A stretch of DNA of 63,822 bases, counting the filler, from Reclinomonas americana ATCC 50394 (taxonomy: Eukaryota): NCBI GenBank assembly GCA_048213135.1. It is 11 parts of 11 records of this genome, joined end to end, with 100 filler letters (N's around TTAATTAATTAA, not from the genome) between each part and the next. Parts side by side here need not be neighbours in the genome. Positions count along the whole stretch, not along the records: positions 4,144 to 9,336 come from AFZH01018076.1; 10 more parts are not named here. One strand, written 5' to 3'. Positions 4,144 through 62,000 of the stretch are shown one piece after another; the first letter of the stretch is position 1; each line of letters begins with the position of its first letter. Position numbers and translations under genes: made by a program. The notes beneath the pieces are model-generated. The model was not told the origin of the DNA and made no database searches. It saw nothing but the letters and a program-made list of their open reading frames with translations.

Positions 4144-5110
4144 GTTGACGAGGAAGAAATACACTCACCTCGCCATGAGAGACGGAGAGGAGATGTGGAG
4201 TGGACTTGAAAGACGTATCATCACATTCGTGTGAGCAATCGCGGTGACACCTGCGGAAAAGCATTGAGAGAGAGAGAGAGGGAGATCGTCCATCGGCGGT
4301 GGAGGGGAGAAACACAAACGAGAGAAAACGTACCACGGGAGATGGTGCGAGCGAAAGAGGCAAAGAGCATCGTGAACGAGCAAGCGTGGGACGTGGTGTT
4401 GTTTACGTCCTACTCGCTAGCGTCCAACAGTCATATTCCCTTTCAGGAGATCCAGCTGCGATCGTCCTTGCTGCGCCGGCTCTTGCAAGCGACAGTGATC
4501 TCGCCTACTGCGTGTGTGCCAGTGAAGCGGAGGAGTGTGTGGGTCTGTGTGAGTAAGTGACATTTCTCCGCAGTGAGACTTCTTGGTGTGCATTCTGGCA
4601 ACTCGCAGTGGATCATCGTCTCTCTCTTTCTCCATCTCTCTTGCTTGCATTCTGTTGCTCTCTGATGATGATAGTGTGCAGCTTCGTCCTTGGAGCTGAC
4701 ATGGAGGTCGTGCCCCAGCAACCGACGGCTGCAGTCATCTCCCATTCTGCTGCTGCTGCAGGTTTGCACGACTGAGTAATCTTGGGGTCCGTTGCGATGG
4801 TTGTACGAGTGTCGAGGTCGGCGGTCGCGAGAGCAAGATCGGCAGCAGAGTGGATCGGAGGACAGCACGCCAGCGGAGGGCGGTTGCTGTGTGTTGTGAC
4901 AATTATCAATCGCATCTTGTGGAGAAACGTGAACTGTATGGCGTGCAGCTGGAGGCCGCCGTTGCGCCGCTTCTCGATCCGATAGCCGAGTTGTGGATTG
5001 AGAATCCAATTGTCAAGCGCTTTTCTACAAACCCACTTTGTTGACAACCTCACACGCTCGTGCACCCCCCGACGGGCACACCAGCGCGCTCGGCTGAGAG
5101 CGTGAACATC

Positions 5111-8100
5111 ATGGCCACGGAAGCCAGCATGCCAGGTGAGCCAGTGAGTGAGCGCGTGATGCATATCTTTGTGGAGTGTGTGGCGTAGGGGTTGGCACAC
5201 TGCATTTATCTTTACGAAGAGCGTTGTTCTATGTATTCGTGTGTGTGCACGTACTGCATGAGGTCCGCGTGTGCTTCTGCATGCGTTGCCGTATTCGACT
5301 TGTGATTTGTGTTATAAGAGACAGAGCGTGCGCGTGTGGGTGAGAGAGAGAGAGAGGGAACATCACCACTGCGTTCACTGTGTTTGTGCGTGTTAGTGTG
5401 TCGCACACACGTTGGCGAACTTGTGATTTAGATTGTGCGTGAGTGCATTCATCATCACTTTACATAACGCAGTTGTCGCAGATGAAATGCCGGAGAACGA
5501 TGACGACGTCCGCACATTGGAGGAAGCGGAGCAACGCGAGGAACTTCTATTTGATGTCGCCAGTCGCGCTAGGAGGGCTGGCAACAACATCTTGGCCTCG
5601 AACTGTTTCGCACGCGTAGCGGCGCTTAGTCGCTTAATCACCGTCCTGAAAGCCACTCCGACTGGTGAGCAGAATTCTCTTTCATGCACGTGAGTTAGTG
5701 GTGTATGATTTGGCTCATCCACAGAGAGAGCGAGAGGCAACATCACTGCATTCACTGTCGATGTGTGTCTGTCTTTGTCGACGAAAAGTCGTATTTCCCG
5801 CAGACGTTTCAGGTTTCCTTACAAAAGTCGTATGTCGCAGAATTGCCGGAGAACGATGATGACGTTCGCACGCTGGAGAGAGCGATGCAGCGCACGACGC
5901 TTCTACTTGATGTCGCCGGTCGTGCTATGGAGGCTGGCAACAACATCCTGGCTGCGAACTGTTTCGCACGCATGTCTGCGCTCAACTACTTAATCAGCGT
6001 CCTGAAAGCCACTCCGACTGTCTCTGCTGGTGAGCCTAATTTTCTTTCGTGTACGTGAATAAGTGGTATACATTTGATTGAGCTCATGCTGCGGAGTGCA
6101 GACGATGGTGACATTGACAACATGCAGTCGAGCGAGGTGGCAATCGACTGGCAGTCGCGTCGCCGTGCAGATCGCGCGCAGCGATGCATTCTTGCCGTGG
6201 TGCGATACATGGCCGCCTGCGACGACCGCAGCGGTGACGACATCTTCTCTGACGAGGCGCTGGCACGAGTGATGGAAGGTATGAATGTGTGTGCGAGTGG
6301 CACGTCGCAGCTTATCGTGTTAACACGAGCATGCTTCAGCGTTCTGTGTGTCCCTCCGACGCGATGTATACGCATTGGAGCCTGTGTTGCATGGCCTGCT
6401 GTTGCCGACGGTGGCGCCTGCGGTGGTGATGGATCGGGTCCGCACCATTCGCCGCCAGGTGAGCGAGGAATCACGAGAGTGGACTGTTGACATGGAACGG
6501 TGAGTGTTCTCCCCACCACCGCCGTGTGACTGATGAACCACTGTGTCTTTCTTTACGTGTGTGAATGGTATGATCGTTGCTGTGTGTCTGTGTGTGCATA
6601 CGTAACAATTTGTATGCATCGTATCTTTGTGTTTCATTATCAATCTCCTCTTTTCCGTGTGTTTTTGTGTTTGTTGCTTTGCAGTGCACTGCGGGCATGG
6701 AAGCATGGCTGTGCGGTTGTCACCGCTGCAGCGACCACCTATCCGCAACGCGGTGCGTGGCAAATGTCATCGTGCACTGACTGCCGTCGTGCTCATAACA
6801 CCGTGACATCAATCGCAGTGTTTTCCATGTCTGAGATCGGTGTGGGAGTGTTCCACTGGTATCCCACCGTCGGCGCCATGCTGCAGTCGCTGCTTTGTGA
6901 GAACAGGGTTCTGCGCATTGACAGCGGTGCGTGGCAGTCCACGTATTGTTTCGAGCTGCGTTGCTGATACTACACGCTGCGAACTGCGCCCGCGCAGGCT
7001 TGCAGGTGGTGGCCTTGTCGCCCGAAGAAGAGGTCGTAGCACCCGTGCTCTTCATCGAGTGCAAGGCCGGTGCGACGTACCGCTCCAGGTGAGACAAACT
7101 CTCGCTGCGGAGAGGCCTAGGGATCTGCGACCGCTATTGTTGATCGAGCCTCTGTCTCTTACGCTCTCTCACACGCGCACTGCTATTTCCATTCACTCTG
7201 AGTATCTTGTGCTCTCTCTCTTGTATCAAGACTTGGTCTCTCATTCTCTCCCACTCGTGCAGTCTTGCCTACTTTCTCGACACTTTCTTTCTCTCTCTCT
7301 CTCGCTTTATCACATATTCACTATGTGCTCGTGCTGCGTTTATCATCTGTGACTTGTCTTCATCTTAGTCTCTCACTCTCCTCCACTCACGCTCATACTC
7401 CTGCACTTGCGCTCATACTCTTACCTTCTTTCTCGACACTTTTTCTTTCTCTCTCACGCTTTATTCACATATTCACTCTCTCTCTCTCTCTCTGTGTGTC
7501 TCTCTCTCTCTCTTTCGTGTTTGTTATGACTGAGCCGTTCCTTTTACCTTAATCTCTCATTCTCTCCCACTCATGCTCACACTCCTGCACCTTGTACTCT
7601 CTCTCTCTCATACGCGGCCCGCGCAGTCATCGCTCCGGCACAGTGAGCGACGAGCATGGCGACCGTGTACGGTCAGCAAACGTCGACTTCTTTCGAGGAG
7701 AATACATGCCGAGAGACATTCCTCTCCTGGAGAACTTGCCGGCAGTGGAAGAAACGATGCCTGTGCGTGGAGCAACAACAACTGCCGACGACGACAGTAG
7801 TGGCACTCAGAATGCAGCCCTCCGATCGACGATGCTTTGCGTTCTCTCTCGCCATCCGGACCTGCACAAGTCGATGCACCAGGCTTGTGGGAACTGGTGG
7901 ATGCTGGCGGCACACATGGATCGCCGTGAGTGGTCGTCGTTGATGACCGCCTTCTGTCTGACCACCGAGTGGTCAATGTCGCTGTTCGTGGTCACACATG
8001 GTGCCAGTGATGTGGAGCCATTGGAGACGCTGCCGTTTGCTTGGTTGCCGTCGCCGTCGTCGGTGGCGATGTGGGAGATGAACGCCGCTCGCGAGTGTCT

Positions 8101-9336
8101 GCCACTGCTGAACATCTCGATTGTCGGCATGTGGAACATGACGCCACGGGGCGACTACCCACAAACAGTGCAGGTCGACTTTTGTGGACGCCAATGTGAG
8201 TTGCCGATTGCACGCACTGTTGTGGCTCATGTGCGAAGACCGTATGACAGTTGTGTGCGTGCGTGCACAGTTGGGGATCGAGAGTCGATGTTTGCGGCCC
8301 TTGCCGGTGTGATGACCTTGTGTAGGGAGGGTGTGACGGATCTGCAGTCTTCACCCGACCACCACATTCTGGAGGCACTGAAGAAAGAAGAAGGTGAGAC
8401 ACTCACAAGGAGAGTCGCATCTGCTGGTGAACTGCTTTTGACTCGTTTGCTGATGACACAGAGAGTGCTGAGACTCCGAGGCCGCCTGCGGTTGCTGCTG
8501 CAAACCGGGAGCAGCAGCCTTCATTCGGCACTACGATGTTCGTGAAGTGCTGCCACTCGTGGCGCGAAGCGAGCCGTGAGATGCGTGTGCTGGAAGAGCT
8601 GCGACGCACAGCGTCGCCGGCCGTGCAACTGCGGCTACCGACACCGATTCGTGTGGACGAAGCGGACTTGTGGTTGCAGCTGCTGCCGAACGATCACGTG
8701 TACACCATCGAGGATCTGCGGATCGTGGTGCGCGATGTGGCGACGGCGCTGCACCATGCACACACCAACGGGTGGGCACACTTGGATGTGAAGCCGGCCA
8801 ACATCATGTACAGTCGACACGAGGTGGCGACACTGATCGACTGGGATCTGGCGCGGTCGTTGCGCGATCGGCAGCGCGGATCAGAGCGGATCGGAACGCG
8901 CCGGTTCATGGTGAGTGGTGGAGGTGAGTTGAGTGCGACACAAAACTCATTGCATGGTCAATCGCAGTCTCCGGAGGCGATCGGCGTCGATCCGTTTGAG
9001 GAGAGCAATTACCCGCCGGGCGGCAAGGCAGACATGTGGAGTCTGGGAGCGACGATTGCCTGTTACGTGGTGGACGAGTTCGGCGTCGTGGTTGACCCGT
9101 TGTGTCACCCTATCGAGCAGGCGGCTGCGGCTGTGGAGGCGGTGCGAGAGTGCGCGCAGGCGCATCCGGGCGAAGACGGATACGCGGAAGTGGCCGAGCT
9201 TGTGGAGTGGCTGATGGAGTTCTGGCCCGCGGACCGACCGACGGCGGAGCAGGTGTTGGAGCATCGCTTTTGTGCGAACGATGGTGAAGATGGCGAGGGT
9301 GAGGGTGGTGAAGATGGTGAGGGTGAGGGTGGTGAA
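5111..9336 (+). CDS. Crinkler-like effector copy 1: duplicated helical N-terminal module + PD-(D/E)xK (REase) domain + atypical protein kinase. True start uncertain; ORF runs into gap
   Basis: Spliced exons 5473-5664 and 5841-6029 (helical repeat), then ..RIDSGLQVVALSPEEEVVAPVLFIECKAG (ExK at 7057-7065) and LHKSMHQACGNWWML..TAFCLTTEWSMSLFVV. Kinase: MFVKCC..ASREMRVLEEL..GWAHLDVKPANIM..LIDWDLA..IGTRRFM|SPE..KADMWSLG..DRPTAEQVLEHRF. Confidence 0.75.
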
Positions 9337-14661: not shown

Positions 14662-17600
14662 ATGGCAAGTCAACCTGTTCCGCAGTCGATTGACGCATCA
14701 TGGGCGGAGCGAGTGGTGGGCGACGTGGTCCCGCCCACACGCTATGTGCCAGAGAGCAATGTCGTCTTCAAGAGCGGAGGTGAACACACACACACAAACA
14801 CACAAACACACACTCAACAGAAAGAGAGAGAAATGCATGTTGCTGTTGTGCGCCTCTCTCTCTGTGCGTGTCTGTCACAGTGAGAGTGCGTGCCTGCGCG
14901 CGCGCGTGTCATGCCTTTTGCTTTTCAGTTTGTGTGTGAGTGTGACACACAAACACAAACTGAGACTTTCACTCACACACACACGTTGTTTGCTCTCCCT
15001 CGCGCGCGCACACACTAACACACACTGTCTGCTTGCTCACTCTCACTGTCTGCGTGTGAGCACACGAGGGCGGGGGCGTGTTTGTGTCGCGCATTTTCGT
15101 TTGCGCGCGCACAAACACAAACACTCTCTCTCTCTCACGCACACACACACTGCTCATACACACTCTCACACACAGAGAGAGAGAGATACACACAGAGCGC
15201 GTTTGTGAGAGCATGCGTGTTACTTTTTTGGAATGTGACTTGCCGTTATGACAATGATGATTGACTGACATGAGTGTGTCTTTGTTTGTGCTTGTGTAGA
15301 CCCGTCGCAACCCGACTATGATTTTCTGCGTGGGCATTTTGCGCGGGAAGGGCGGATTATGGTGGCAGATGCGTTGGCGATTGTGCGAGCGGCGACTGCG
15401 TTGTTGGCGGTCGAGGAGAATGTGTTGCACTTGGAGGATCCCATTACAGGTGTGAGAGGCGGGGAGGAGGGATGAGGGGAGGGAGAGAGTTGGCGGTCTC
15501 TCTGACACTTGGCCAACTCACGTACATGCGGAGATTGAGAGATTTGGGGGTGCGAGTGCAGTTGCTGCAATAGGCGGTGGTGCTGGAAGCGCGTCACACA
15601 CACAGGGGAAAGAGGGAGACGAGAGGGTCCAAGTGCAGCCGCACACGCATGCACGGGCACTGTGGGTGCAAGCGCGCACGTTGCAGTAGTCACGCGACGG
15701 CACACAGGAGACAAAGGGGTGCAAGCACACGCACGCACAGAGAGAGAGACAGGGGTTAAAGCGCAGCAGTTGCTGTAGAGCACCCTTCTCGCACGCGTTG
15801 GGAGCTACGCACGCACACACGGTGAGAAACACGGGTGCCAGAACACGCACACACACACACAGAGGTGTAAGCGCAGCTGCTGTTAGAGAGCATCCTTCTC
15901 TCACGTGTCAGCAGCAACGCACGCAGACACTCAGTGAGAAACAAAGAGGTGCAAGCGTGTACACACACAGAGCAGATACTTCTCGCTCGCGTCAGGAGCA
16001 GCACACGCACTTACAGTGAGAACAAGGGTGTTCCCGCGCACACACGCAAGGCACATAGAAGGAGAAGAGGTTCGTTCTGTTACTGGAAGCGAGTGAATGC
16101 TCACTGCAGCCGCTGCATTGGCGCGCTCCTTCTGCCTGTCGCGCGTGGAAGTCTTTCGTCGCCGAGCATGACTTTCTTCTGCTGCTCCTCCTCTTGTTCA
16201 TCTCTTTGTGGCCTGCTCTCGTACTCGCTGGCCACTCTGACCTCTCTGCCGTCTCTTTCACGCATCACTCTCTCGTTCTCGTTACCAATTTTCTGTTACC
16301 TGTCTCTCACACACACGCGCGCACGCGTGCCGTCTTTCCCTGTTCTATTCGACCCTTCGTCTGCCGTAACTTCTCGCTTTCTTCTTTCTGTTTCTCCGTT
16401 CTCCTGTTTCACCCTCTCGATATCCTCGTTAAGTCTTCCTCTTCATTTTACTTTTTTGTTGCTCCCTCTCCCTCACTCACCCCTTGTACCCTCGTCCATC
16501 ACCCTCGTTTCTTTCCTCCCGTCGTCTCTCTCTCTTTCCCCTTCTCTCTTTTCTTTCCCTGCATCACCTTCTCACACATCCCTCCCCTTCTCCCCCCGTG
16601 TACCCTCATCCATCACCCTCGTTTCATTCCTCCCGTCTCTCTCTCTCTCTTTCCCCTTCTCTCTTCTCTTTAACTGCATCACCTCCTCACACATCCCTCC
16701 CCTTCTCCCCCCTTCAGTGTGCGGCGACGTGCACGGCCAGTTCTTCGACCTGGTCAAGCTGTTCGAGGTCGGCGGCAGCCCGATGAACACCAAGTACCTG
16801 TTCTTGGGCGACTACGTCGACAGGGGTGCGTTGTCTCACGCACTCTCCCCCCATTGTCTGTTCTCGCACGGAACCTGACACGTCGTGGTGCGCAGGGTAC
16901 TTTAGCTGCGAAGTCGTCATTCTCATGCTGGCCATCAAGATCCGGCATCCGGACACGTTTTACATGCTCCGCGGAAACCACGAATGCCGCCATCTGACGG
17001 CCTACTTCAACTTCAAGGCCGAATGTTGCGTGCCTTTTTCTCTCTCTCTCTCTCCCTTTCCATCCTTTTTCTCACCCTCTCCTCTCCGTCATTCAGGCAT
17101 TCACAAGTACAATGAGGAGTTGTACGACGAGGTCATGACGTGCTTTGACCAACTGCCGCTCGCCGCCATTGTCAATGGACGATTCTTCTGCGTGCACGGT
17201 GGACTGTCTCCCGAGGCCGACACGGTCAAGGCCATCTCCGACATTAACCGCTTCCGCGAACCGCCGCAATCAGGCGCCATGTGGTGCGTCCCTTTTGGTC
17301 GCAACTGTCGGCAGTGCGTGCGTCGCTCAAAATCTTGTGTGCAGCGACATTTTGTGGTCGGATCCAATGCGTGAGGAGGAGGAGGAGTATCTGGGCGACT
17401 CGTTCTACTCGCAGAATGACATGCGCGGTTGCTCGTACGTGTACAGCTACAAGGCAGTGGTCAAGTTCCTCAAGAACAACCACCTCTTGTGTGTCATTCG
17501 TGCGCACGAAGCGCAGGACGAAGGGTGCGTGTGGTTGCAGAGGGAAAGGGATAAGAGGGGGTGTAGATGAGAAGGGGGACGCGAAGGGCAAGAAAGGGAG

Positions 17601-19984: not shown

Positions 19985-22900
19985 AGTTCCATTGCGGTAA
20001 TCGGCATGACTGTGTATATCGAACGCGGTAAGACACACACACACTCAACACGAGCTTGTTCACGAGTCCGCACCTGATGATCAAACTGCTGCGGAACTTG
20101 CGCAGGTCGATGACATGCATCAGCTGATCGCGTGAGTTCGTCAAGCAGCGGTTGCCGTCTGTGCAACCAGTGTCAGTGTCTACCTCTTCGTACTCTGCTT
20201 CTCCCTCTCCCTCTCCCACATACCTGGGAACATGGCGAGTCCGGTGATGCGCGACGTGTGAATATCCGACACCTCCGCCGTGAGGTCCGACGATCGCACA
20301 TCCCACACGCGCAGCTTGCCGTCAAAATGGCCGGAGATGAAGGTCGACGAGTCCAGCGGTGAGATGAGATCGTGCACCGTCGACAAGCACGCCCGTGTCT
20401 GTGCACGGAGAAAATGTGAGACTGCACATCAAATATACATGCACTATTGCGCTCATACCTTGACCAGCGTGCCGCGATTGGTGTCCCAGATCTTGAGGGT
20501 GCGATCGCTCGAGCCGGTGACCAGCAGAGAGCTGTCCGACGAAAAATCACCCGCCAGCACCTTGTTGGTGTGGCCCGTCAGCGTGTGCTTGACGCGCGAC
20601 GTGGCCAGTGTCCACACACGCGCCGCCATGTCGTTGCAGGTGCCAAAGGCAATGTCGCCGCGCGCCGAAATACCCACACGCATCACGCCCATTGTGCTGC
20701 CGTGCAGTGTCTTGTCCGGATTGACTGTGCGCGGAGATCGAAGAGTCAGTGCCAAGAGCACGGATGATTGCACGCGCTCACGCTGACGCACATGATGCGC
20801 CGTCCCACAGCTTCACTGTCTTGTCCGACGAGCCGGTGATCAGCAGGCCGCCAGACAGGCTGAACGCACAGCTGTTCACCTCGCCGTTGTGCGCGTTCTG
20901 CTCGATGCCATCCACAAGTAAATATATGTGTAAGACACGACAATCGAATTTCACCACTGACGCAACAATGCGCAGTCGAACGCGGGTCGGTGGTGCAATG
21001 GCCGACGACTTGGCCAGCGTGGGTGGCGGACCGGAACCGGAGGCGCCGTCCTCGTCCTCCTCGCCACCCACGGGTGCCCCGGTGGGACTCCGCATTGACT
21101 CGCGCAGCGCTCTCTCCATGCGCAGTGCGTCGCTGAGTTGGCCGACCTCGTTCATCATGCGCGCCTGCTCCTCCTTGGCGGCCAGCAATTGTGTGACGAT
21201 TTGCACGTTCTCTTGCTTGAGGCGCGACACTTCGTCCTCCATTAGTCGTCGGTGTTCCTTGAAGGAGAGAGAGATTGGTGAGGGGGAAGTAAGGAGGAGA
21301 GGGGTGGTGGGTGGAACATACCACCAATGACTCGCGCTCTGTCAGCAGGGCGGCGTTGTCGGCTTTCAGGGCGGCCATTTCGGCGTCGCGGGCTTGGTAG
21401 GCGGCGCGGGCTTGGAAGGCCTCGGCTTCCATGGAGGCGTAGCTGATATTTGGGAGGAAGGGGGATGAGGGGAGAATGAGAAGGCAGGGAAGGGAGGGGG
21501 AGGAGCAGATGGTGAGAAAGACAAAGTGAACGCCAGCAAAGAGTGGAGGCAAATCGTGTGCGGAAGAAGGAACGTGTACTACGGACGAGCAAAAAGAGAG
21601 CTGGACGCACAACAGAGAGAGAGAGAGAAACACAGACGCTCTTGCGTATCGATTCATGCAGTACGAGTTGATGAAGAAGTGCAGAAAAATTAAGAGACAT
21701 GGCCACAGGGCTGACAAGAGTGAGGAATCGAGAATGTACACAACGCGCGAGTGTCAGAGGACGGAAGGTGGACACCTTCCAGGTTTAATCCACGCAGGGA
21801 ACATGCCGACTCACCGCGTCTCCATTTGTGCCAGTCGCTGCTCCATCGACTTGACCTCCTCTGTCGCCTACAGCGGGGGATTTTCAGTCACCGCCGCCGT
21901 CACTCCATTCAGCATGCACACAGACCTTGATGTGCTTCTCGTTGAGCAGCACCTCCTTGCGGAAGTGCGCCGTCAACTCGTCCTTTACTTGCCGCAATTC
22001 GTTCTCCAGCTCGGCCACACGTGCTTGCGTGGCGGGCGTGTCCACCATTCTGACAAGAGAACACAGGGTGGGTGTGCGGAAGGGAAGAGGAAGGGTGATT
22101 CAGATCATGATGCTCTTGTGTAGAAGGACACGGTCTGCCTAACGCTCACTCCATGTCTCTCTTCTTCGAGTTCACGAGAGATATCGATAGCACGCCTCCT
22201 CTCTCGATCCAGTTTGTTCTCCTACAGTGCATTATCTCTCTCTCTCTCTCTCTCTCTCTCTNNNNNNNNNNNNNNNNNNNNNNNNNNNNNNNNNNNNNNN
22301 NNNNNTTAATTAATTAANNNNNNNNNNNNNNNNNNNNNNNNNNNNNNNNNNNNNNNNNNNNCACCTCTCTTCCTTCCCCTCCTCCTCCCTCCTCTCTCTC
22401 TCTCCCTCCCTTCTCCCAACTCTCACCTCCCCGACGAGGCACCATCCAACTGCGACTCCAACTGCGTGTTCCGCGTCTGCAGAAAGCGCATGTCCTTTTG
22501 CAGACGACTGCGTTCTGTTCCGAGCACTGTCAACTCTCGCAAAACCCGGTTATCTGCGCAGAGAAAAAAGAGGAGAGGTCAATTACACAACACACACACG
22601 GAAAGAGAGAGAGTGAGAGAGAGAGAGAGAGAGAGCGAAGAGAGACACAGAGAGAGAGAGAGAGAGCGAGAGAGACAGGCAGATAGAGAGAGAGAGAGCG
22701 AGAGAACGAGAGAGAGACAGAGAGTGAAGAGAGACAGAGAGTGAAGAGAGACACAGAGAGAGACAGACAGAGACAGAGACACACACTCTCACACTCTCAC
22801 TCTGTCTCACTCTCTCTCTCTCTCTCTATGTTGTTTGCATACATTCATCAAAGAGTGTGCGATATGGTTTGCACTCGAGGCCATCGCGATGATGCAGACG

Positions 22901-40946: not shown

Positions 40947-42164
40947 ATGAGTGTGCAAGAGCTGTGTGCGTCGTTCTCGTTTGCGCATGAGGAGCTGAAT
41001 GCGCGACTGGAGGAGGTGCGCAAGAGTGTTTCTGCACTTGTGGAGGCGCGATTGAGAGCGCGTAATGCGCATGAGGAGTGGCTGCAAGCACGAGGTCTCT
41101 CTCTTTACTCTTGACTTGCAGTCTGTGTGTGGGCACTGATGAGCGCGTGGCACAGTGTGTGCTCGGCAAGTGTTTGAGGAGCGAGTAGCAGTGGTGCAAC
41201 GCGCTGCGCGGAGTGCCTCTGTGGAGGAGGGAGTGCGCGAGTTTGTCTGTGCATGTGTGGCGATGCGAGTGGCGGTGCTGGCGGCGGAGAAGCAGGCGGA
41301 TGCGTTGCGTGACACGCCGGATGCGGGTGTGGCGGCGGCAGTGGCCGAGTTCAATCGATTGGTGGAGGAGCTGGCGGGCGAGGCGGAGCGAGTGGGAGAG
41401 CGAGTGGTGCGTCTACAACTGATGCATGCAAAGTTGTGGTGCTTACTGTAGTGTAGCCGTGGTTTATTCCGTACATGGCGGCGACGGGTGACACGGGCAA
41501 GGTCGACCTCGGTGGACGATTGCTGGACGCCAATGGGTTTTCGATATTCGAGACCAAGGCGCGTTGTGCATGATTGGTTAAGTTTGTTGGCGTTCTTTGT
41601 TGCTCACGTGTAGGCGTGCAGTGTGCGATCAGTGGATGGGTGATTCAGGATGGAGCGATGGGCGAGGGCACTGCGCGGTATCGGTGTTTGGATGTGGTGC
41701 GCTCGGATCGCTCGGTGGAGTGTCACGAGGCGCTGTCGGTGGTGCTGGAGGCGCTGCAGCGGATGGAGGCGTCGGGTGCGCTGCCGGCCGGCGCTGCCAT
41801 GTCGATGCTGTTGCAAGAAGTGGAGGGTGTCGGAGAGGAGAGTGGCGGGCATCCACTGGCCACGCTGTCGGCCACGCGCCATGCTGTGTTTGCGCTGGAG
41901 ACCAACCACCCGGTGTTTCTGTACAATGGCGTCATTGGTGCGTCCGTCCGCACTGTGAGAGAAGGTGTAACGTGCCTGCCTGACGCTGCGGTCTCTGCAG
42001 ATGCGAAATCCCCGGCCGAGGCACTGAATCGTGCATTCGCCGCCTATCCGAATCGCCCAGCTGTCGGCATGCCCGCACATCGCATCGATGAAACCAACAT
42101 GCCATTCGGGCGGCAGTGCGACATGGCAGTGGAGGCGTGAGTAGCCGTGTGCCGATATGGTTAA

Positions 42165-42199
<35 letters not shown>

Positions 42200-45100
42200 G
42201 CTCTCCCCCATCGTCTCCCCCATCGACTCTCCCCTCCCCCTTCCCCCTTCCCCCTTCTTCTCCGCCTTCCCCCCTTCCTTCTCATCCCCTTTTGCACACC
42301 GCAGATACCGCTTCATGTCCTACCGCCGCATCGGCGAGCTGACGCGCATCTTGGCCAGCGCACTGGATCGCCTACTGCCGCCGGGTGTGTTTGTCGGTCT
42401 CGCCGGCGACAACCGCCTCGAATGGATCGTCACCGACTTTGCGTGCTCCGTTGCCTCACGCCATGCCATTGGCCTGCACAAGGTATCGGTTTCTCGCATC
42501 TCTCTCTCCTCCTCACGACACTTTCTCGCTCATCCGCAACATGGCAGACATTTTCGGCCAACGATTTGGACTTTGTTGTGCACAATGCTGAGCTGCATGC
42601 GATTGTCAGCGATCTCGAGTTCCTTCGTGTCGTCGCAACGGCCGCTCCACGCATCGCCGACGCGGTGCGTGTCGTGATTCTCATGGATGACGCGGCGCCG
42701 GCGGCATTGCTGGCGCCCTTGGCACACCAGTTGAGCGAGGCCGGCATTCGATTGGTGCTGCTGAGTGAGCTGGTGGCCGGCGTGGTGGAAGCCGCGTTGC
42801 CGGTGCTCGACGAGGAGCCACGCTCCATCTTTGCCGTGCTGTACACGAGTGGTTCGACAGGTCAGCCAAAAGGCGTCACCGTGACCTCGGAGGTTTCGTA
42901 CTCGTCAAGAAAAAATGTCACACAAGTGTGCGTCGGTGCTGAGCAGCGCGTCGTGCAGATGTTCCTGAAGGACATTTCCAGCTCCGGCTTCATGGACGTG
43001 TATCCGGTGGCCGGCTGCTCGTACATTCCACTGTCGCACTCCACCGACCGCATGCGCGTGTGGGAAACAATGATTCAGGGCGGGCGCATCGGCTTCTGCA
43101 ACTACCACTACACCAACTGGGTCGACCACGAGACCGTGAAGAAGGACCAGCTTGTGCATGTGAGTGTGGGGGGAAAGGGAGCATGAGTGACGAGATGTCA
43201 GAGAGAGATCTCACGCTCGTTGGCACGCCAGGATCACGACACGGGCACCAACAACGTGGAGACGCTGCTGGAGGATCTGCGGCTGGTGCGGCCCACCATT
43301 TTCATTGGTCCACCGCGCATCTGGAATGGGATTTATGAGGTGCGACTCTGTGTATGCACTTATCTGCAGGACGACTTGTGCTCACGATCCTGTGCACAGA
43401 TCTGGGGACGTAGCGTAAGGAGGCATGTCGCCAATGGCGCAGCAGTCGAGGAGGCAGAGCAATTAGCCAGCGAGGAATGTCGGCAGATTCTCGGCAATCG
43501 CGTGGTGCACTGTGCCACCGGTGAGTTCATGTCTGTTTCTATCCGTTGGCGTGCGTGAAGTCTCACTTGTGTGGCAGGCGGTGCGCCGACGAGCGAGAAA
43601 GTCAAGGTGTGGGTGCGAAAGCTGCTTCCAGACGTGGCATTCATCGACTCGTATGGTGCCACCGAGTGCGGTGGCATTGCACGCGACGGCGTCGTCATGC
43701 CGAGTGTGGAGATGAAGCTCGTGGATCATCCCGACATTGTGAGTCGCTGTACACGACTGGATGTGTGAGAGGCAGCTCGTCTCATCTACCTGTGCTCTCA
43801 GGGGTTCACCAACGCCGACAAGCCGTTCCCTCGCGGTGAAATCGCCGTTCGCTCTTTCTTTGTGTCACCTGGTTATCTCAAGTTGCGTAATGTCTGCCCG
43901 TGTTGTGTGGCCACTTCGTGCTCACCACTCGTGCACTGCAGAGATCCAGTGAAGACGGCAGAGGCGTTTCACGATGGGTGGTTCCACACAGGTGAACGTA
44001 CTTCGTTTTACGTCTCCTCTGGTGATCCATCTTCCTCACGTTCTCCGCAGGCGATCTGGGCATGGTGGACGGCGATGGAAAGCTGCACATTCTCGAGCGC
44101 GCCAATGTTTCGTGTGCCGTCGACAATGCCACCCACTTGCTTCTCGATTCTGGTCATCTTCTCGGTTCCAAATGCACCTCTTTACATTTTCTTGAGTGAT
44201 TCTCGATTCTGGTCTTCATCTCGATTCTTGGGGCACCTCTCTCTCTCTGGATCCTTTGCTTTCTTCCCTGTCAGTTTGTCCTCCATTTCTTTCTGCAGCT
44301 GCACGCTGTTCTCGATTCTGGTCTGCTTCGCGCTTCCAAACTTACTTTCTGAGCCTGATCTTTCTCCCCTGTCAATTTGTCCTCTATTTCTTTCTGCAGC
44401 TGCAGGCTATTCTCGCTTCCTGATACACTCTCTTGATCCCGTTCTTTCTCCAATGCGTTCCTTCTGCCACCGCCCTTGATCATGACCCTTGATTCTTTCG
44501 ATTCTCGTCTTCTTCCGACTTCCTGCTGCAACCCTCTCTTTCTCTTGATCCCGCTCCTCTTCCCCTGTTCTCCCTTTCCCCCTTCTGTGCTGACTCCACT
44601 CAACGCGCGCAGGCCGTTCAAAGTCTCTCCACCGGCCAAGTGTACTGTCCGACGCATCTGGAGAGCCTCTTTGAAGAGAGCACCCTGGTGCGTGGCACAC
44701 ACCTTGTCGATTATTATTGTTTGGTGCGCTGACTCTCTCTGCAGGTTCACGGCGTGTATGTGCATGGCGAGCCGCAACGAGACCACCTCGTTGCCGTGGT
44801 GGTGCCGTCGGAATCCGCTCGCGACTCGGTCACGCCTGCAGCGGTACGCTTGTCTCGCCCTTTCCCTCCTTCCCGGCCGTTGCTCACCGCACCCAGGTCC
44901 TCGACGATTTCAACCGCCTGGCTGCGCTGCGTGGTGCGTCGCTTTCCCACTCCCTCTGTTTTCCCCGTCGCCTTCTCACACCTGTATCACAGGCCTGGAG
45001 CCACACCAAGTGCCACAGGCGGTGCACCTCACGCTGGACGAGTGGCGCGCCGACGGCGACGCGCTGCTCAATCTGCATTTCAAGAAAATGTTGCGTGCAC

Positions 45101-48100: not shown

Positions 48101-48210
48101 TGCGTGAGTGCATGAGTGAAAGCCATTGTTTGGGTGGCGACGAAACAACACAAGTGACGGCTTGCATTTTTTTCGTTCCCTATTAAAAAAAGAATTGTAC
48201 AAGGTGTGTG

Positions 48211-51200
48211 TCATCTAGGAGGGTGGAAGCGCGCAATCGTTTCCGGAGCAAAGAAGCGCGCAAAGTCAGGCTCGGCCGACCAGTGCTGCGCGGCCAACTC
48301 GTACACGCGCAGGAATACGCGCACAAAGCGCGCTGGCGAATAGAAATAATCAAAGATACCAGCAGGTGGTTGAAGAGCCTGCCACACAGAACAACAACAG
48401 AGCGTGAGCTCGAGTCTTTCTCTTCCGTACATGAAAAAAACCCAACACAGACCTCTTTGGTTTGCGGTGTGTATTCGCGATAGTGGTTGCACACGTTGCG
48501 CGTCAGGCGCAACAAGTCAGTGGCGCTGTTCTTGTCGTACTTGCGATACGATCCGCAGTCGACGGCCACAAAGTCGTCGAGCTTGGCGATCCACCCGTCG
48601 GGACCTGCAGCAACACGAGATAAACAGAGCTGTCGCCACCATCGCTCCGGTGCATCAACACACTGACCGACAAGCGCCGGCGACTCCCGCGTCAGACTCT
48701 CCCACACAATGGACGGGCTGCCGCGCTCCTTGCCCAGCTGCTCGCTGACCTGGGAGATGAACATCATGCGCCGCTCGCCGTCCCAGAACGCCGGGTGCGC
48801 GCGAACTTCTTGCATCGATGGTCTGTGCCGCGGTGTGTAATGAGCACAACACACACTCTCTCATCAATGCACGCAGCACTTCCTCCACCGACCTGCTGTT
48901 GGGATCGGCCTGAATCATCGACTGAATAAGCACCTTATGCAGCGGCAAGTGATCGACGCCGCGGAGATCGGCACGCCCACGCAGAATGTTGTGCTCGCGC
49001 GAGTGCCTGCACCCGCTTGTCAATCCACAGCACGACAGCAAGAGCACGATGACGACGACACCAACAACGCAACACGTCGCCAAACGGATGCTTGCCCTTG
49101 GTGAGCACATAGTAAAACACACAACCGACAGCAAACACATCCATGGCCTTGGTCATGCGACCCTGGTTCAGAATCTGTCGGGTACACACATTCAGAACAC
49201 ACAGTCCATCCCTTCCTGACACATTCAAGTGCATCAAAATGCGCACCTCTGGTGCCTGCCAGCCAAAGGTGCCGTACTGATCCAGTGTTTGGAACGAGAT
49301 CTGATCACGGGTGAGGATTTTGCCGGTGCCCATGTCGGAGATCTTGACCCTGTGTGCGCCACACGAGTCAGCACATGCGGGAGAGACAGTGGCGACACAC
49401 GCGATTGTCTGCTCACCTGTTGTCGATGCCCACCAGAATGTTTGCCGGCTTGATATCTCGATGGACGATATTCAAGCTGTGCAAATGGGCAATACCAGCC
49501 GCCACGCCCTCAATGGCCTGCGCGTCACGAGTGAGCAAGAGGAGTGAGGGAGAATGCAAACGCAAGAGATGCACACCTTCATGGCCACCTCGGTCGACAT
49601 CTCTGGCAGAATGTCCGAGAGATTGCCAGTACACCGCTCCAGCACGAGATACACAAATTGGCCATCGGATTCCTGTCGCACAGACAAAGAATGCCGTGTG
49701 AATACGTGCGCACATCATCTCACCCAACACAAAAACAACAAAACCTTGGCGTAGTAGCGGACGACATTGGGATGATCGTCCGACGATACCTGCATGCATC
49801 CACCAAGTCAGTGCACGGGACTGACAAACAAGGTCGTTGGAGAGAGAACTCACCAGAATCTTGATTTCTGTGTCGCTGACATCGAAGAACTCGCACAGCA
49901 TGCGTTTGACGGCCACAGGTCGGCCACCCAACAGACCGGCATACACCACGGTGCCGTCTTTTCCGCGACCTGTTCAGTTGCACTCAACAGTCAGGCATTC
50001 GTCATTGGTGCTGATAACAAGCGCGCAAATCGCACCAAGAATGTCGCGCTGAATCTCCAAACTGCCGACACGAGTGACACCATCCGGTGTGACCTCCTTG
50101 TCCGGCTGGAACTTTGGAGGCCCTGCACAACATGCACACGTGAGTCAATGAGAGTGAACGAGCATCGCAATAGTCGTCGCAATGTGACGCACTGCCCCGA
50201 GAACTCGACTGCGATGGGCGAGGAGGGTAAGAAATTACGATAAACACACAATGACACGGCACATGGGTACGCACCGACGACCACGATCCCCACGACGGCG
50301 ACTCCTCGTCTGCATCTCCCGCAGCTGCGGTCGGCGCCGCTGCAGTTGCTGGTGGTTGCGGCGGTGGCGGCGGTGGCGGAGGCAACGATTGCACCGGTGG
50401 CGGTGCTTGTTGTGGAGGCGGAGCAGCAGCAGTCAATGGCGGCGTCGAGGTGGCAGATTTCGGCGGTGTTGGTGCGACATGCGCCGGCTCAACCGGCGCG
50501 TCTTCAGGCTCCGGCTCGTCACCACTGTGCGTCTCGTCGTCCGACGGCTCATCCGAGGCGACTGCTGGTCTCTGCGAGCGCCCAGCCTTGCCACCCTTCT
50601 TGCCGGCCTTGCCACCCTTCTTGCCCGCTGCTGGTGCCTTCTTGCCACCGGCGACTCCGCTGCCGGTGTTATTCGACACCTGGCTCGGCTTGGAGCCACC
50701 ACGGGAGGCAGTATTCTACCAGGGATGGTCAGCAAGCAGGAAACAGAGAGAGGAAAAGTGGAAGTAGAACACACACCTTGCTCGGTCCAACAATGCACCG
50801 ATGTACGGCCACGACAATGCCCACAGGCAGCAACAGCATGCAGCACACGAGTGCAGCAGTGGCGGTCGGGTTCACCCGACTCAGTGCGAGCAACCAGTCA
50901 GCTGTGCCCCACCCGTCAGCATCGCACACACCTCGCACCACACGAACACAGCATGAGGGTTACGCAACCGAGAATGGTGATGAGCGGCGCAGTTGGCGGC
51001 ACAGGCTCGTACTTGGGGATCTTGCTGGTGCTGCCGAGTGACCTGTGCACACACACAAAGTGTTAGAAAACATCTCCTACCTTCCCTGACAGCAAGCATG
51101 CACGCAACGAATCCGTCGCCCGATCAGAGTCACCAGTCGCCACCTGCTCCGAATCTCCATGCGGCAACGCGAGGCGACCAGGCACAGCGATCGGTTCGCT

Positions 51201-55670: not shown

Positions 55671-58600
55671 ATGGCAGACGTGCAGGTCAGTGCTCTGCCT
55701 CTCTCTGCATGTGTGTGTGCGCTGACCACTCGCGCACTCGTCGCTGCATTTCGCATTGTTTCTGTTGTTGTTGTTGCTTGTGCTGATGTACATCTCTTCC
55801 CTCTCTTCACAGCGTGTGGTCCAAGAGGAGCTCGAGGCGGCACTCGGGCGTCAATGCACCGAGGCCCTTCGCGGGTGCGTGCTGACGTATCTGGAGCACA
55901 TTGTAATGGACTACTTGCAAGACGAGGTGGGCGTGCTGGAGGAGAGTGATGTGTTGTCGGCCATGGTGCTCTTCCTGCACGCTGCCGGCTTCTTTGTGGA
56001 GGCTGCTGGTGGCAGCAGCAGCAGTGGTGCCAGTGCGAGTGCTAGTGGGCGACTGGCAGTGCAAGAGGTCTTGCGACGTGCGTTGAGTGGATGTGAGGCG
56101 CGAGGGCTGGCGCGCGCACAGCGATTGGCCGTGCGCCCACTGGATATGCCTGTGCACTTTGACAAGTTCTTGGCCGATCAGAGCACTGCTGCAAAGGTTA
56201 CGCGTGGAGGGAGGCCGCGTCTTGTGTGTGCCACAGGCAGTTGTCCTCAATGTTCATGCATGCATGCAGGGTGTGTTTGGTTTCGGCTCGGAGATGGTGG
56301 AGGCCAACTACAATGAGGAGCTCAACTGGGCCAATGATGAGTGGAAGCTGGCGCGCAAGAACAAGAAGGATGCCAAGCTGCGTGAGAAGCAGCAGAAGGA
56401 GATTGATGAGCGCATGGCGATTCGAGGCACCAGCAAGGCCTTCAAGAAGGTGCTCTCTTGTTGCGAGTGTTGTCGTGCGCGCGCGCGCTTGCCACTGACA
56501 CCCATGCGCGCAGGTGCATCCCACTGGCGAGCGTGTCACCGGCAAGGCCGAGTTGATGCTCTACAACTTTGATGTGTCGATCGGCAGCAAGACTCTGATT
56601 GAGGCCGCCAATCTCCAACTCGCCGACGGTCATCGCTATGGCGTCGTCGGCAAGAACGGCATTGGCAAGACCAGTTTCGTGTGCCACTGCCTGTGTTGCT
56701 CCTCNNNNNNNNNNNNNNNNNNNNNNNNNNNNNNNNNNNNNNNNNNNNTTAATTAATTAANNNNNNNNNNNNNNNNNNNNNNNNNNNNNNNNNNNNNNNN
56801 NNNNTCTCTCTCTCTCTCTCTCCTCCACATCTGTCGTGTGTGCTGAAGCATCCGTGCAGCTCTGTTGCACCAGCTGTCCAGTGGCGACATTCCCGGAATT
56901 CCCGATTACCTGCAGATTTTGCACGTCGAGCAAGAGGTGTGTATTCACTCTAAACACCGCAAAGAGGCCATGCCTCACACTGCTCTCCCGTTTCAGGTGC
57001 TGGGTGATTCGACGACGGTGCTTGACAGTGTGCTGAACACGGATGTGGAGCGTCTCGCATTGCTGGCCGAGGAGGCGGACTTGTTGACGAAGAGTTGCGT
57101 CTTGCTCTTCCCACTCACTCACATTGGTCGCCGCTCATCTTTGCCGTACTGCGTTTGCACAGCCGACGACGCTTCCTCTGCACGGCTCATCAAGGTGCAC
57201 GAGCGACTGACGTTCATCGAGGCCGACCAGGCGGAGGCCAAGGCGTCGTCGATTCTCACCGGTCTGGGCTTCAGCATGGAGGACCAGAAGAGACCAACGA
57301 AGGAGTTCAGCGGCGGCTGGCGCATGCGTGTGTCACTTGCCCGTGCCCTCTTCTGCGAAGCCGACATTCTGTGCCTCGATGAACCGTTGCGTCCTTCCTC
57401 AAGTCGTTGTCACTTCGTCTACGAGGCGACTCACTTGCATGTACATTTCACAGGACGAATCGTGCGTGCCTTCTCCGCCGTACTCTTGCATCGCGCGTGC
57501 TCTAACCATGTTCCTCGCAGACCTCGACCTGTACGCTGTCATGTGGCTGGAGGAGTACCTGATGAACGTTGTGTTCTTGATTGATACCCGACCTACCCTC
57601 TCCGCCGTGCTGGACTCATTCCCTTTGCCTCCACAGTACAAGAAGACGCTGCTGGTGGTGTCCCACGCCCGTGACTTCCTCAACTCGGTCGTCACCGACG
57701 TCATCCACGTGCATGATCGCACCATTACGCAATACAAGGGCGACTACGAGACCTTTGATCGCACCCGTCGCGATGCCATGCTGTTGCGTCTCTTTACCTC
57801 GGAGTCGCGTATCCAAGTGCGCCAACTCACTCCCTCTTCACGGCACAGCCTGCAGGATCGCATGCGCGATGCACAGGAGGCACGACGGGCGCACGTGCAA
57901 ACCTTCATTGATCGCTTCCGCTACAAGGCCAAGACGGCCAAGATGGTGCAGTCGCGCATCAAGATGCTTGAGAAGATGGACTTTATTCCCGCCATGGCCG
58001 AGGATCCCTCGTTCATGTGGCACTTCCCCTCGCCGGAGCCGTGTGCGCCGCCAATTCTGCAGGTCATCGACGTGGCGTTCGGCTACTCGCCCGAGCGCAT
58101 TCTGTTCCGTGACGTGAATTTCGGTATCGACATGGAGAGTCGCGTGGCCCTGGTCGGCCCCAACGGTGCTGGCAAGAGTACATTTATCAGCGTGCTGACG
58201 GAGGAGCTGGAGCCGACCTCCGGCATGGTCGTGCGCAGTGGCAAGGTCTGCAGCTCCACACAGTGCTTCTTGCATCTGTGTACGCGACTCACTCTTCTGG
58301 CGACGGTAACAGGCTCGCATCGTGCGCTTCACGCAACACCACGTCGACCAGCTGAACCTGGTGCAGAATCCGCTCGAGTACATGCGCACCATGTACCCCA
58401 TGGTGAGCAGAGGCAGTGAATAGAACCTGCTGACTTTCACGCGCTGACTTTGTCGTGTCGCGCAGGCCAAGGAGCCGGCGATTCGCTCTCACCTCGGCAA
58501 CATGGGTGTGACGGGTGAAATGCAGCTGCAGCCAATCTACACGCTCAGTGGTGGTCAGAAGAGTCGTGTGGCGTTTGCCTACATCACCTTCCCGAAGCCG

Positions 58601-58905: not shown

Positions 58906-59085
58906 TTAGTGCGAGGCGCAGAACCATAGACCGGAATGAATGTATCGCATCGTTCTATCAGCGCGCGTGCCAGTGTTTCGATTTTGTGTACATTCTTGCA
59001 GTGCTTGCTGACTGTCTTTTTTGATGATGTAAAAGAGCGGAAACAGATAAAGAAAAAAAGACCGTCCGCTCTCCACGCGCTCGCA

Positions 59086-62000
59086 TTATCGGCGAGGCGA
59101 CGTGCTCCTCCTCTCGCCGCTGAGACCCGAGTCGGAACCGCCTGCACTCAGGTGGCGATCGGATCGTGAGTACGGCGAGCGGCTGCCTCCCATCAGTGCC
59201 GACGCACTGCAACAACAAGGTGAGGGACGGTGATGCGCTGACACCATTTGAGTACTGATGCGCCCCGCTCACCTCGCTGCGGCGCCACTGGATGCCGTGG
59301 CAGTGCCGGCGCCGGGTACCTGCTGACCCTTGAGCATCAACATGGCCTGCGCCTGGCGCAACTGCTGCGACAGCTGATTCTTCTGCTCGCGCAGCTCGCG
59401 CAGTTGTCGCTCGTGCGTCTGTGCACGTGCCAAACGATGTGAGCGCGGGGATGAGGGACGACGACAAGAATGCAAAGGGCTGCGCAACATGATAAACTCC
59501 ATCCTTTTCCTGCTCCAGCGCCTGGAACTGGCGCTTCCACGACTCGCGCTCACGCTCTGCCGTGCCCAGTCGCTCGCGCAAATCGTCAATCTCGCGTCGC
59601 AGATGCTCCACCGAGCGGCTCTGCTCGTCCACAGCGCGCAGCTCGCGTTGTGACTGCTCGAGCTGCTCGTTGAGGATGTTGATGCGTGCCTCGGCATCGT
59701 TGAATCGCTCGCGTGTCTTGTCCGACGCACGAGTGGCCTCGTTTGCACGGTGCTCGGCAATCATATAGTTCTCCTCCACCATGCGAATCTTGGCCTCGCA
59801 TTCGTCGCGGTAGTGCGCCAGGTTGTTGTCGGCCTCCGCCACCTCGTACTCCAGTTGGCGAACGCGGTGCTCCAGGTCGGCACGTGCACGCAGCTCCTCC
59901 GAGAGCTTGCCACGCAGCACGCCCAACTCCTCCGTCATTGACTCCTGCACGGACGAGACAGAGGAGGGTCAGTGGCTGATGCAGCAGCAGGCGAGCGAGC
60001 TCACGGTGACGACAATACTCACCCGATCGCGCGCCATTGCAGCTCGCTCAGCATTCAGACTGCTGAGCTGCGTGGTGGTCGAGTTGAGCTCTGTCTGCTG
60101 TCGCGCCTTGACGGTAGTCAGCTCGTCCTGCAGCCTCTTGTTCTCATCCTGCAGCTGCTGCCGCTGGGCCTTGGCCGTGTCCAAGAAGTTGCGCGTCTGC
60201 ACCAGCTCCGCCTTCACCTGCTGTGCAATCGAGTCCAACGACCGTTCGCGGCCCTCGGCGGCCTGCAGCGCACTCTGCAGATGGGAGGAGAAAACGGTTT
60301 TTAGCAAATCGCACAACACTCGGGAGGGAGGCAACAAAGGGGTACGCAACTGCCAAACCACGCATCTTGGCCTGCAGCTGATCGCGTTCCTGAGTGAGCG
60401 AGTCGGCATGATCGCGAGCGTCGCGCAGCTCCTGCGCCATGAGCTGCACGCGGTGCTGCAGCTCGCTAGTCGAGTGAAAGGTAAAGGTGAGCAAGCGAAC
60501 TTGCAGCGCACCACGACACGTGCGTATGGCGAACTCACCGACACTCCTCGGTGAGCGAGTCGCGGTCCGAGACCACATTCGACGAGTTGCGTCGCTCCTC
60601 ATCGACTGCCAGTGACAGCTGCTGCATGTCACGGCGCAACTGGACCAACTCCTCATCGCGCACCATGGCCTCGCGTTGCCGTGACTCGACAATGGAGCGC
60701 AGTTCGCGGATTTCGTCCGTGTACGCCTCACTGTGATGCGAAAAGTGAGTCTCCCCGGGTGCATACAATGTGATGAGCACACACACACTCACCGCTGCAT
60801 GGCAACATCCTCTTGCAGCACGGCCACCTTTTGTACAGCACGCTCGTACTTGTCCTTCCAGTCGCTCTCCGATTCGCGCGTCTCCGCTCGTGCACTGTGC
60901 AACTCTTTCTGCAGAGGTGAAGCGCGCACTTGGTCAGCGCCCAATTCTCCCTTCCGCCAACACATATGGCCGCCACTCACCTCCAGCTGCTGTGCACGAG
61001 TGGACAGACGATTGTTCTCCAGCGTGGCATTGTGCAGCTGCAGCTCGAGAGAAGACTCGCGCTCACGAGCACGAATCTCCCACGAACTGACCTCCTGCAA
61101 CGCCTGATCACGCTCGTCCTCCAGTCGTCTTTGCGCCATACTGTGTGTGATACACGAGTAAGTAACATGAGAGACGGACGTGGATGATGGAGCCACTCAA
61201 CTGTGCACTCTGCAAGTCGGCATCCTGCCTCAGTCGCAGCGTACTAATGTTCTCGGTCAGCCGTGCGTTCTCGTCCTCGACAGCCGTGACACGATCACGC
61301 AATCCCATGACCTGCGACTGCAACTCGTCGGCAGTGCGCCGCAACAGGTCGTTCTCTTGCTCCATGGCACGCTTCTGCGACATCAATGTGCGCTCAAAAT
61401 TGGTCCGTTCCTGCACAACAGACAGAAGGCGACCGGTGAATGAAATGGACAGAAGCCAGGAAACACACACAACAAAACGCAACAGTGTCGGCGCCATCGC
61501 GCAAGTTATGCAACGCCTCCGAAATGTCGGTGAGCTGCGTCTGCAGCTTCGCATTGTGCTCCTCCAGCGCACCACGGCCGTTGCGCAACTGGATGAGATC
61601 GTCGTTCGTCATCTCATATCTGCGACGGTACTCCTCCGAGCTGCTGCGGTACTTCTCCGCCTCCTCCGCCGTGTTGCGCAGGTCGGTGAGTGCCTGTTGC
61701 AGGTTGAACACCAGCTCCTCGTTCTCCGATCGCTGCTGCGCCAGCAGACTGGCGGCGCGCGACTGATCCGCCGTCACCTTGGCTCTGCGCACGAGTCAGC
61801 CATCGCGACTCAAGAAAATGTGTCTGTCGACCATGCACGCAACAGCTGATTGCGCAGATCCGTGGCCGCATCCTGCAGCTCGCGCATAATCGTGTACGTC
61901 TTCTCCTCGTCTTCGGTGCGCCACTGCAGCACCTGGCGATGGTGGTCGTCGAGAGCCGTAGTCAGCGCCCGTACTCTCTTCTCCATCTCGTCACGTGCGC

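Follow-up and report, generated by a model that had tools for sequence, protein, structure and literature searches.

A stretch of 63,822 bases from Reclinomonas americana ATCC 50394 (assembly GCA_048213135.1), made up of 11 contigs of about 3–10 kb each and referred to here as the window, contains two copies of a multi-exon gene whose product ends in a protein kinase domain. Copy 1 lies on the plus strand of contig AFZH01018076.1 (window positions 4144–9336) and copy 2 on the minus strand of another contig (30684–36870). We consider it probable, at roughly 0.7, that this is a genuine two-copy, multi-exon gene encoding a divergent CK2-like kinase that has no glycine-rich loop and is joined to an orphan N-terminal regulatory or targeting module. 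We read it as a lineage-specific gene present in two copies; the GT-AG introns of the genes in the window mark their source as a eukaryote.

The predicted protein would comprise some 780–850 residues, of which the last ~250 would form the catalytic domain of a divergent Ser/Thr kinase, with neither a Gly-rich loop nor a beta1-beta2 hairpin ahead of the beta3 strand. The first ~200 residues may be helical, a reading taken from the residue pattern alone, and would be followed by a mixed alpha/beta part of ~300 residues containing the short motif FIECK (encoded by exon 7). The N-terminal region would then serve the kinase as a module for regulation, targeting or the recruitment of substrates, and would not belong to any recognised class of enzyme.

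A two-copy gene under purifying selection

Gene models were predicted from canonical splice sites together with the comparison of copy 1 and copy 2. The model for copy 1 has 11 exons between 5111 and 9336 (+) and comprises 776 codons with no stop; its 3' end is missing, since the model reaches the end of the contig inside a Gly/Glu/Asp repeat. The model for copy 2 also has 11 exons, running from 36223 to 32236 (-), with 853 stop-free codons and a TAG directly after them. All ten introns in each copy are of the GT...AG type, and of the 770 residues that align between the two proteins 639 (83%) are identical. Where exons differ in length between the copies they do so by 12, 90, 57 and 6 nucleotides, always a multiple of three, while intron lengths differ by something other than a multiple of three in six cases out of ten. 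Synonymous divergence (dS) between the copies is 0.23, with a ratio of non-synonymous to synonymous divergence (dN/dS) of 0.48 overall and 0.27 in the kinase; for the FIECK exon the ratio is 0.23, from a count of 7.0 synonymous and 6.0 non-synonymous differences. Purifying selection on the predicted gene is shown by this comparison.

The limits of exon 8 could be checked independently against P0001, the one distant relative of the N-terminal region (see below), which is an open reading frame (ORF) of an unspliced contig: the aligned stretch opens with the initial residues of exon 8 and ends no more than seven codons from the end of that exon. Exon 7 joins exon 8 in phase in both copies, giving ...YRS-S-HRSG in copy 1 and ...YRC-S-YRSG in copy 2, and in each copy the predicted splicing thereby connects the FIECK exon (6998–7088) with the kinase exons without a shift of frame, as a preliminary description of this DNA had proposed. 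That description had also supported the FIECK frame with six pairs of synonymous codons differing between the copies, and all six were found in exon 7.

That both copies are decaying or unexpressed duplicates, their frames simply left over, is highly improbable: a dN/dS of 0.48 is only moderately low, but the frames of 776 and 853 codons stay open through 10 introns whose splice sites are all intact, the indels in exons never break the frame, the kinase combines a dS of 0.23 with a dN/dS of 0.27, and P0001, a relative only 31% identical by BLASTP, keeps the same exon limits.

Similarity at the DNA level between the two contigs is confined to 5776–9275 of copy 1, and since exon 1 and the promoters differ the copies are paralogues, not alleles. 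Their divergence is mosaic, exons 2–4 being 94–98% identical (dS 0.02–0.15) and exons 5–6 only 76–78% identical (dS 0.46–0.58), which suggests gene conversion across the 5' part of the gene.

Copy 1 has two tandemly duplicated versions of its second exon, 2a and 2b, which are identical at 150 of 178 aligned bases. With 2a in place of 2b the copy 1 model has 777 codons and is stop-free, and inclusion of both breaks the frame; no counterpart of 2a was found in copy 2, which has a single exon 2. Exons 2a and 2b of copy 1 are thus candidates for mutually exclusive exons. Three introns of copy 1 (6753–6818, 8196–8270 and 8911–8967, of 66, 75 and 57 nucleotides) are multiples of three in length and stop-free in frame, and their retention would leave the ORF open. 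The corresponding introns of copy 2 measure 75 and 75 nucleotides, again multiples of three, and 65 nucleotides for the third.

The C-terminal kinase domain

The Pfam Pkinase profile (PF00069; cutoff 31.7 bits) matches exon 10 with 48.5 bits (E 1e-12, profile positions 88–164) and exon 11 with 28.6 bits (E 1.2e-6, positions 166–262). The closest solved structure is CK2 alpha (E 8.6e-8), taken from the best 60 of 204 matches in a Protein Data Bank (PDB) search with the kinase part; a PDB search with the N-lobe piece alone returned nothing relevant. The motif IDW(G/D)LA is common to CK2 alpha and the kinase described here, and a Trp at the DFG position is rare. Alignments to CK2 alpha' extend back into helix alphaC, but only to query residue 37, the Arg directly before the Glu of REMRVLEEL, and so leave the proposed beta3 lysine, K532, uncovered. 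On these profile and structure-database matches the C-terminus is a protein kinase of divergent Ser/Thr type, most like CK2 alpha in sequence, and the preliminary description had been right to place a kinase there.

The set of catalytic residues is whole in both copies: FVK with K532 (codon 8545–8547 in copy 1), the Glu of alphaC REMRVLEEL, HLDVKPAN (8785), DWD (8839), SPE and DMWSLG. K532 lies 10 residues ahead of the REMRVLEEL Glu, both residues are kept in copy 2, and they are predicted to form the beta3 Lys-alphaC Glu pair of the domain. The DFG motif is replaced by DWD, with an Asp in place of the Gly. No Gly-rich loop motif (GxGxxG) was found upstream of FVK in either copy, and PSFG-x4-VK is preceded by a linker whose sequence is not the same in the two copies. 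An ORF search with the kinase yielded only P0002 and P0003, bacterial-type kinases with 32–33% identity; in a MAFFT alignment with P0002, a canonical kinase, both copies have a gap of 23 columns opposite its Gly-loop and beta2. A metagenome scan with the kinase exon alignment gave pattern matches, none of them confirmed by tblastn. We infer that the kinase is active in spite of the missing Gly-loop, for which the WNG kinases offer a precedent (PMC6442604).

The orphan N-terminal region

The N-terminus itself (MATEASMPELPENDDD) is acidic and has no hydrophobic stretch. With E-values up to 1, Pfam gave no family for exons 2b, 3, 4, 6, 7, 8 or 9; with E up to 10 it gave nothing real for exon 7, exon 8, the exon 8–9 read-through or P0001, the sole row being Nodulin at E 0.18. 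NCBIfam and PADLOC gave no match for exons 6–9 or for P0001, and a PDB profile search with exon 8 gave no related chain, its best match (E 0.11) being an unrelated complex I subunit.

An exhaustive HMMER search of 1.84 billion representative proteins produced a single match to exon 8, P0001 (E 7.7e-5), a Logan singleton from a contig of 2585 bases. Its identity to exon 8 is 32% over the matched stretch by HMMER, 31% by BLASTP and 30% in our alignment A1. Word-indexed searches with the exon 8 profile, set to proteins of similar length, found no relative beyond P0001, and those for longer proteins with exon 8 found none; a metagenome scan with the exon 8 alignment gave pattern matches, with no confirmation by tblastn. 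The nearest ESM Atlas clusters to exon 8, haptophyte hypothetical and PC-esterase proteins (scores 0.90–0.92, 147–155 of 256 features shared), had a recognition value of 2010, under the mark of 2300, and were treated as noise. These searches show the N-terminal ~500 residues of the predicted protein to be an orphan region with no detectable family and one weak relative among 15 billion proteins.

The conserved core of exon 8 carries RHPD-LHKSMHQ (with Q358 at codon 7880–7882), LTTEW (7958), SLFVVT and QVDFCG. Residues invariant in copy 1, copy 2 and P0001 fall in RHPD..K, SLFVVT, IS.VG.W and QVD..G; at the position of Q358 P0001 has Asn, and in place of LTTEW it has LMTDEC.

Is the N-terminal region a nuclease?

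The preliminary description had read exons 6–8 (residues ~235–400) as a PD-(D/E)xK restriction-endonuclease-like domain fused to the kinase. On this account an Asp precedes the second strand (D241 in copy 1, the Asp of HAD in copy 2), E263-x-K265 lies on the third strand (codons 7057–7059 and 7063–7065), and a helix and a strand follow; such a fusion could couple nucleic-acid sensing or cleavage to phosphorylation. We think it unlikely. Its motifs are present where they had been placed, FIECK at 7051–7065, HKSMHQ at 7865 and LTTEW at 7958 in copy 1, and on the minus strand of copy 2 FIECK is found at 34497, HKSMHQ at 33871, LTTEW at 33778 and the kinase motif HLDVKPAN at 32866. Both copies keep the FIECK motif, and the selection acting there is purifying. 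Lysine is remarkably scarce in copy 1 (9 of 776 residues), and eight of its nine lysines are kept in copy 2, including those of FIECK, the beta3 strand and the catalytic loop, so that the Lys of FIECK is retained in a protein with few of them; copy 2 has 21 among 853 residues, most of the additional lysines falling within variable inserts that are longer than those of copy 1. Among 5000 shuffled versions of copy 1, 223 contained three hydrophobic residues and then E-x-K; when a D was also required upstream, the number was 186. The motif is therefore uncommon by chance, yet it is not compelling, because it was picked by eye from a 64-kb window. A further point in its favour is that fusions of PD-(D/E)xK domains and protein kinases are on record (DUF3883; PMC3424549).

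Against it, none of Pfam, NCBIfam, PADLOC or the PDB sequences gave a match to any PD-(D/E)xK family for the N-terminal exons, and the nuclease identity is in this respect unsupported. The Gln put forward as part of the motif, Q358, is Asn in P0001, the sole distant homologue. A conserved Gln in the helix after ExK is typical of only some PD-(D/E)xK families. The residues invariant among the three sequences play no part in the nuclease model. P0001 does not cover the FIECK exon, and D, E and K can be compared only between the two paralogues, which share E and K but are themselves 83% identical. The proposed Asp is also out of register. The preliminary description had set KHAD of copy 2 opposite RAG of copy 1, and this stands in the genomic alignment, but the only acceptors that keep the frame leave RAG inside an intron of copy 1. 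After splicing, copy 1 has RIDSG-LQVV at this place and copy 2 has RVDHVKHAD-LQVL. In copy 1 no Asp other than D241 (codon 6920–6922, exon 6) is close to where the strand preceding FIECK begins, and D241 lies two residues ahead of that strand, whereas in copy 2 the Asp is directly ahead of the strand. Finally, the proposed core is split by a variable insert of 60–90 residues. This low-complexity insert between ExK and the helix with Gln, which the preliminary description had noticed, is real, and in copy 2 it is ~30 residues longer, the extra residues being rich in Gly, Ser and Ala.

Structure prediction was applied to contiguous unspliced fragments only, and the FIECK exon is in neither of the two models. 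AlphaFold2 gave a mean predicted local distance difference test score (pLDDT) of 38.1 for 7793–8392 (exon 8, the in-frame intron and exon 9) from the single sequence, and of 45.3 for the conserved part of exon 8 from the three-sequence alignment A2 (copy 1, copy 2 and P0001). The latter, low-confidence model has a helix over HPDLHKSMHQ... and then a strand pair, LMTAFCL and SMSLFVV (pLDDT 55–61), as the preliminary description had supposed; a tight hairpin after the helix is, however, more typical of a kinase N-lobe than of restriction-endonuclease beta4. A Foldseek search of the PDB with this model gave nothing at E ≤ 0.001 (best E 0.14, TM score 0.33), and the matches listed include no restriction endonuclease and no eukaryotic protein kinase; with a model of such low quality, the outcome says nothing on the fold.

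Around FIECK the elements follow one another as strand, Asp, strand, strand with ExK, helix, strand; those strands that precede the helix were read by eye, and the low-confidence model supplies the helix with its subsequent strand pair. This succession would suit a restriction-endonuclease core and equally a kinase N-lobe, which has three strands with a Lys, helix alphaC and the beta4-beta5 hairpin. The most elaborate version of the nuclease proposal, in which exons 6–9 form a highly divergent new PD-(D/E)xK-fold domain with a lineage-specific insert, fused to a CK2-like kinase with no Gly-loop, and nucleic-acid binding or cleavage is coupled to phosphorylation, we regard as decidedly unlikely.

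A remnant kinase N-lobe?

The beta-rich N-terminal part might alternatively be a remodelled or remnant kinase N-lobe, or a piece of a degenerate pseudokinase, that caps or completes in cis the catalytic domain with no Gly-loop. FIECK would then be a VAIK-like beta3 strand, the following helix alphaC, and the LTTEW/SLFVVT hairpin beta4-beta5. We hold this to be improbable as well. The catalytic domain does want beta1, Gly-loop and beta2, the topology of strand, strand, strand with Lys, helix and hairpin does match (the helix and hairpin being those of the low-confidence model and the rest read by eye), and in the WNG kinases a family-specific element stands in for the Gly-loop (PMC6442604). On the other side, hhalign gave a probability of only 0.6% when the N-terminal region was compared with the alignment of the kinase, BLASTP between the two halves of the protein gave at best E 0.21 for a segment that implies another register, and exons 7–9 gave no Pkinase match even at E 10. 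The C-terminal domain, moreover, already owns a beta3 Lys, alphaC, beta4 and beta5, and P0001 is of low complexity where alphaD and alphaE would fall. Attempts to match the N-terminal region to kinase motifs by eye led to registers that contradict one another, and these are not relied on.

A divergent kinase with an orphan regulatory or targeting module is our preferred interpretation, and several points weigh against it. The missing Gly-loop could instead mean that the C-terminal domain is a pseudokinase. The role proposed for the N-terminal region is argued only from a lack of matches, which is weak ground, and many PD-(D/E)xK families escape detection by sequence. The conservation of eight lysines in nine, with that of FIECK among them, fits a functional lysine, and a restriction-endonuclease core could accommodate the succession of strands and helix read around FIECK.

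Features of the window

The exons of both models are listed in Table 1 with the other coding regions recognised in the window. Because the window consists of joined contigs, with spacers of N44-TTAATTAATTAA-N44 between them, sequences on either side of a spacer are not genomic neighbours. Its GC content is about 50–60%, and CT/GA and TG/CA microsatellites are abundant in its introns and intergenic DNA. Rfam and tRNA scans of the whole window found nothing. One of the other genes is of IRE1 / RNase L type, its Ribonuc_2-5A (KEN domain) match having an E-value of 2.2e-12; the other five are ordinary eukaryotic genes.

Table 1. Exons of the two gene copies and other coding regions of the window
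Feature	Position	Strand	Remarks
Copy 1, exon 1	5111-5135	+	ATG, 8 codons in all, then GTGAG donor; start of the 776-codon model without stops
Copy 1, alternative exon 2a	5473-5664	+	Bounded by AG/GT; tandem duplicate of exon 2b
Copy 1, exon 2b	5841-6029	+	Start of N-terminal region; 98% identical to exon 2 of copy 2
Copy 1, exon 3	6102-6278	+	No Pfam match
Copy 1, exon 4	6340-6499	+	No Pfam match
Copy 1, exon 5	6685-6752	+	Part of the spliced model
Copy 1, exon 6	6819-6926	+	Ends ...RIDS; no Pfam match
Copy 1, exon 7	6998-7088	+	FIECK exon, with E263 and K265; no family match
Copy 1, exon 8	7627-8195	+	Low-complexity insert (~7628-7815), then conserved core
Copy 1, exon 9	8271-8393	+	Upstream 75-nucleotide intron in frame and stop-free, but with GTGAGT...CAG ends
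Copy 1, exon 10	8462-8910	+	Variable linker, then kinase from beta3 through DWD
Copy 1, exon 11	8968-9336	+	Kinase C-lobe (SPE, DMWSLG) and Gly/Glu/Asp repeat; run of N from 9337
Copy 2, exon 1	36223-36190	-	
Copy 2, exon 2	35811-35623	-	
Copy 2, exon 3	35551-35375	-	
Copy 2, exon 4	35313-35154	-	
Copy 2, exon 5	34909-34842	-	
Copy 2, exon 6	34766-34659	-	
Copy 2, exon 7	34562-34460	-	FIECK exon
Copy 2, exon 8	34199-33541	-	
Copy 2, exon 9	33465-33286	-	
Copy 2, exon 10	33183-32741	-	
Copy 2, exon 11	32675-32236	-	
Metallophos ORF	15871-16875	+	Matches calcineurin-like phosphoesterase
WD40 ORF	20781-21341	-	Matches WD40 repeat
AMP-binding ORF	42092-43183	+	Matches AMP-binding enzyme
IRE1 / RNase L type gene	48186-49973	-	One ORF matches Pkinase (HRDIKPAN), the next Ribonuc_2-5A
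ABC transporter ORF	56847-58416	+	Matches ABC transporter domains (ABC_tran, ABC_tran_Xtn)
Nuf2-like ORF	58961-59968	-	Weak Nuf2-like coiled-coil match, just under cutoff

Comparison with known systems

With the PD-(D/E)xK superfamily the N-terminal region shares an Asp ahead of a hydrophobic-ExK motif, and then a predicted helix and strand; it differs in matching no profile of the superfamily, in the lack of conservation of the Gln of the helix, and in the long variable insert inside the core. The combination of nuclease and kinase would resemble that of the DUF3883-kinase fusions (PMC3424549). IRE1 and RNase L also combine a kinase and a nuclease in one polypeptide, but in them the nuclease, the KEN domain, stands at the C-terminus and is easily recognised by Pfam, whereas the candidate described here is N-terminal and matches nothing. 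Since DUF3883 fusions are on record (PMC3424549) and the window itself has an IRE1-type gene, even a nuclease here would be a new family of a known architecture. Were it real, it would represent a new kind of kinase-nuclease fusion, a claim that the present evidence does not justify.

The FunK1 kinases (PF17667) likewise have a large N-terminal part before a C-lobe that is the sole portion shared with Pkinase. The FunK1 profile was nevertheless rejected for this gene: exon 10 scores 24.0 bits against a cutoff of 24.1, far below its Pkinase match, and has a Lys in the catalytic loop at the position where FunK1 kinases have Ser in place of the Lys of eukaryotic protein kinases (PMC3203195).

Like CK2 alpha, the kinase has Trp at the DFG position (IDWGLA in CK2 alpha, IDWDLA here) and a VKPxN catalytic loop (HRDVKPHN in CK2 alpha, HLDVKPAN here). 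The similarity is however weak, most matches covering ~70 residues around the catalytic loop, and the protein described here has no Gly-rich loop, an Asp and not a Gly after the Trp, and ~500 additional N-terminal residues.

The WNG kinases are active although the Gly-loop is missing from them; their remaining catalytic motifs are present, and the Gly of DFG has given way to an acidic residue (PMC6442604). They are secreted and are reported only from coccidia. The kinase of R. americana likewise has no Gly-loop, retains the Lys of VAIK, the Glu of alphaC and the Asp of both HRD and DFG, and carries an acidic residue for the DFG Gly (DFE in WNG1, DWD here). It is dissimilar in that WNG kinases are secreted, whereas the protein here has an acidic, non-hydrophobic N-terminus, and in that CK2, not BPK1, heads the PDB results (best 60 of 204 matches). 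The resemblance, drawn from published descriptions of the WNG kinases, is one in the way the kinase may work, with no claim that it belongs to that family. The protein unites a CK2-like core, loss of the Gly-loop and an acidic residue at DFG+2; among the kinases considered here these features come together only in the coccidian WNG family (PMC6442604), the closest precedent that we found in print. The gene described here, representing a divergent protein kinase family from a poorly sampled eukaryote, is mainly of interest to the study of kinase evolution.

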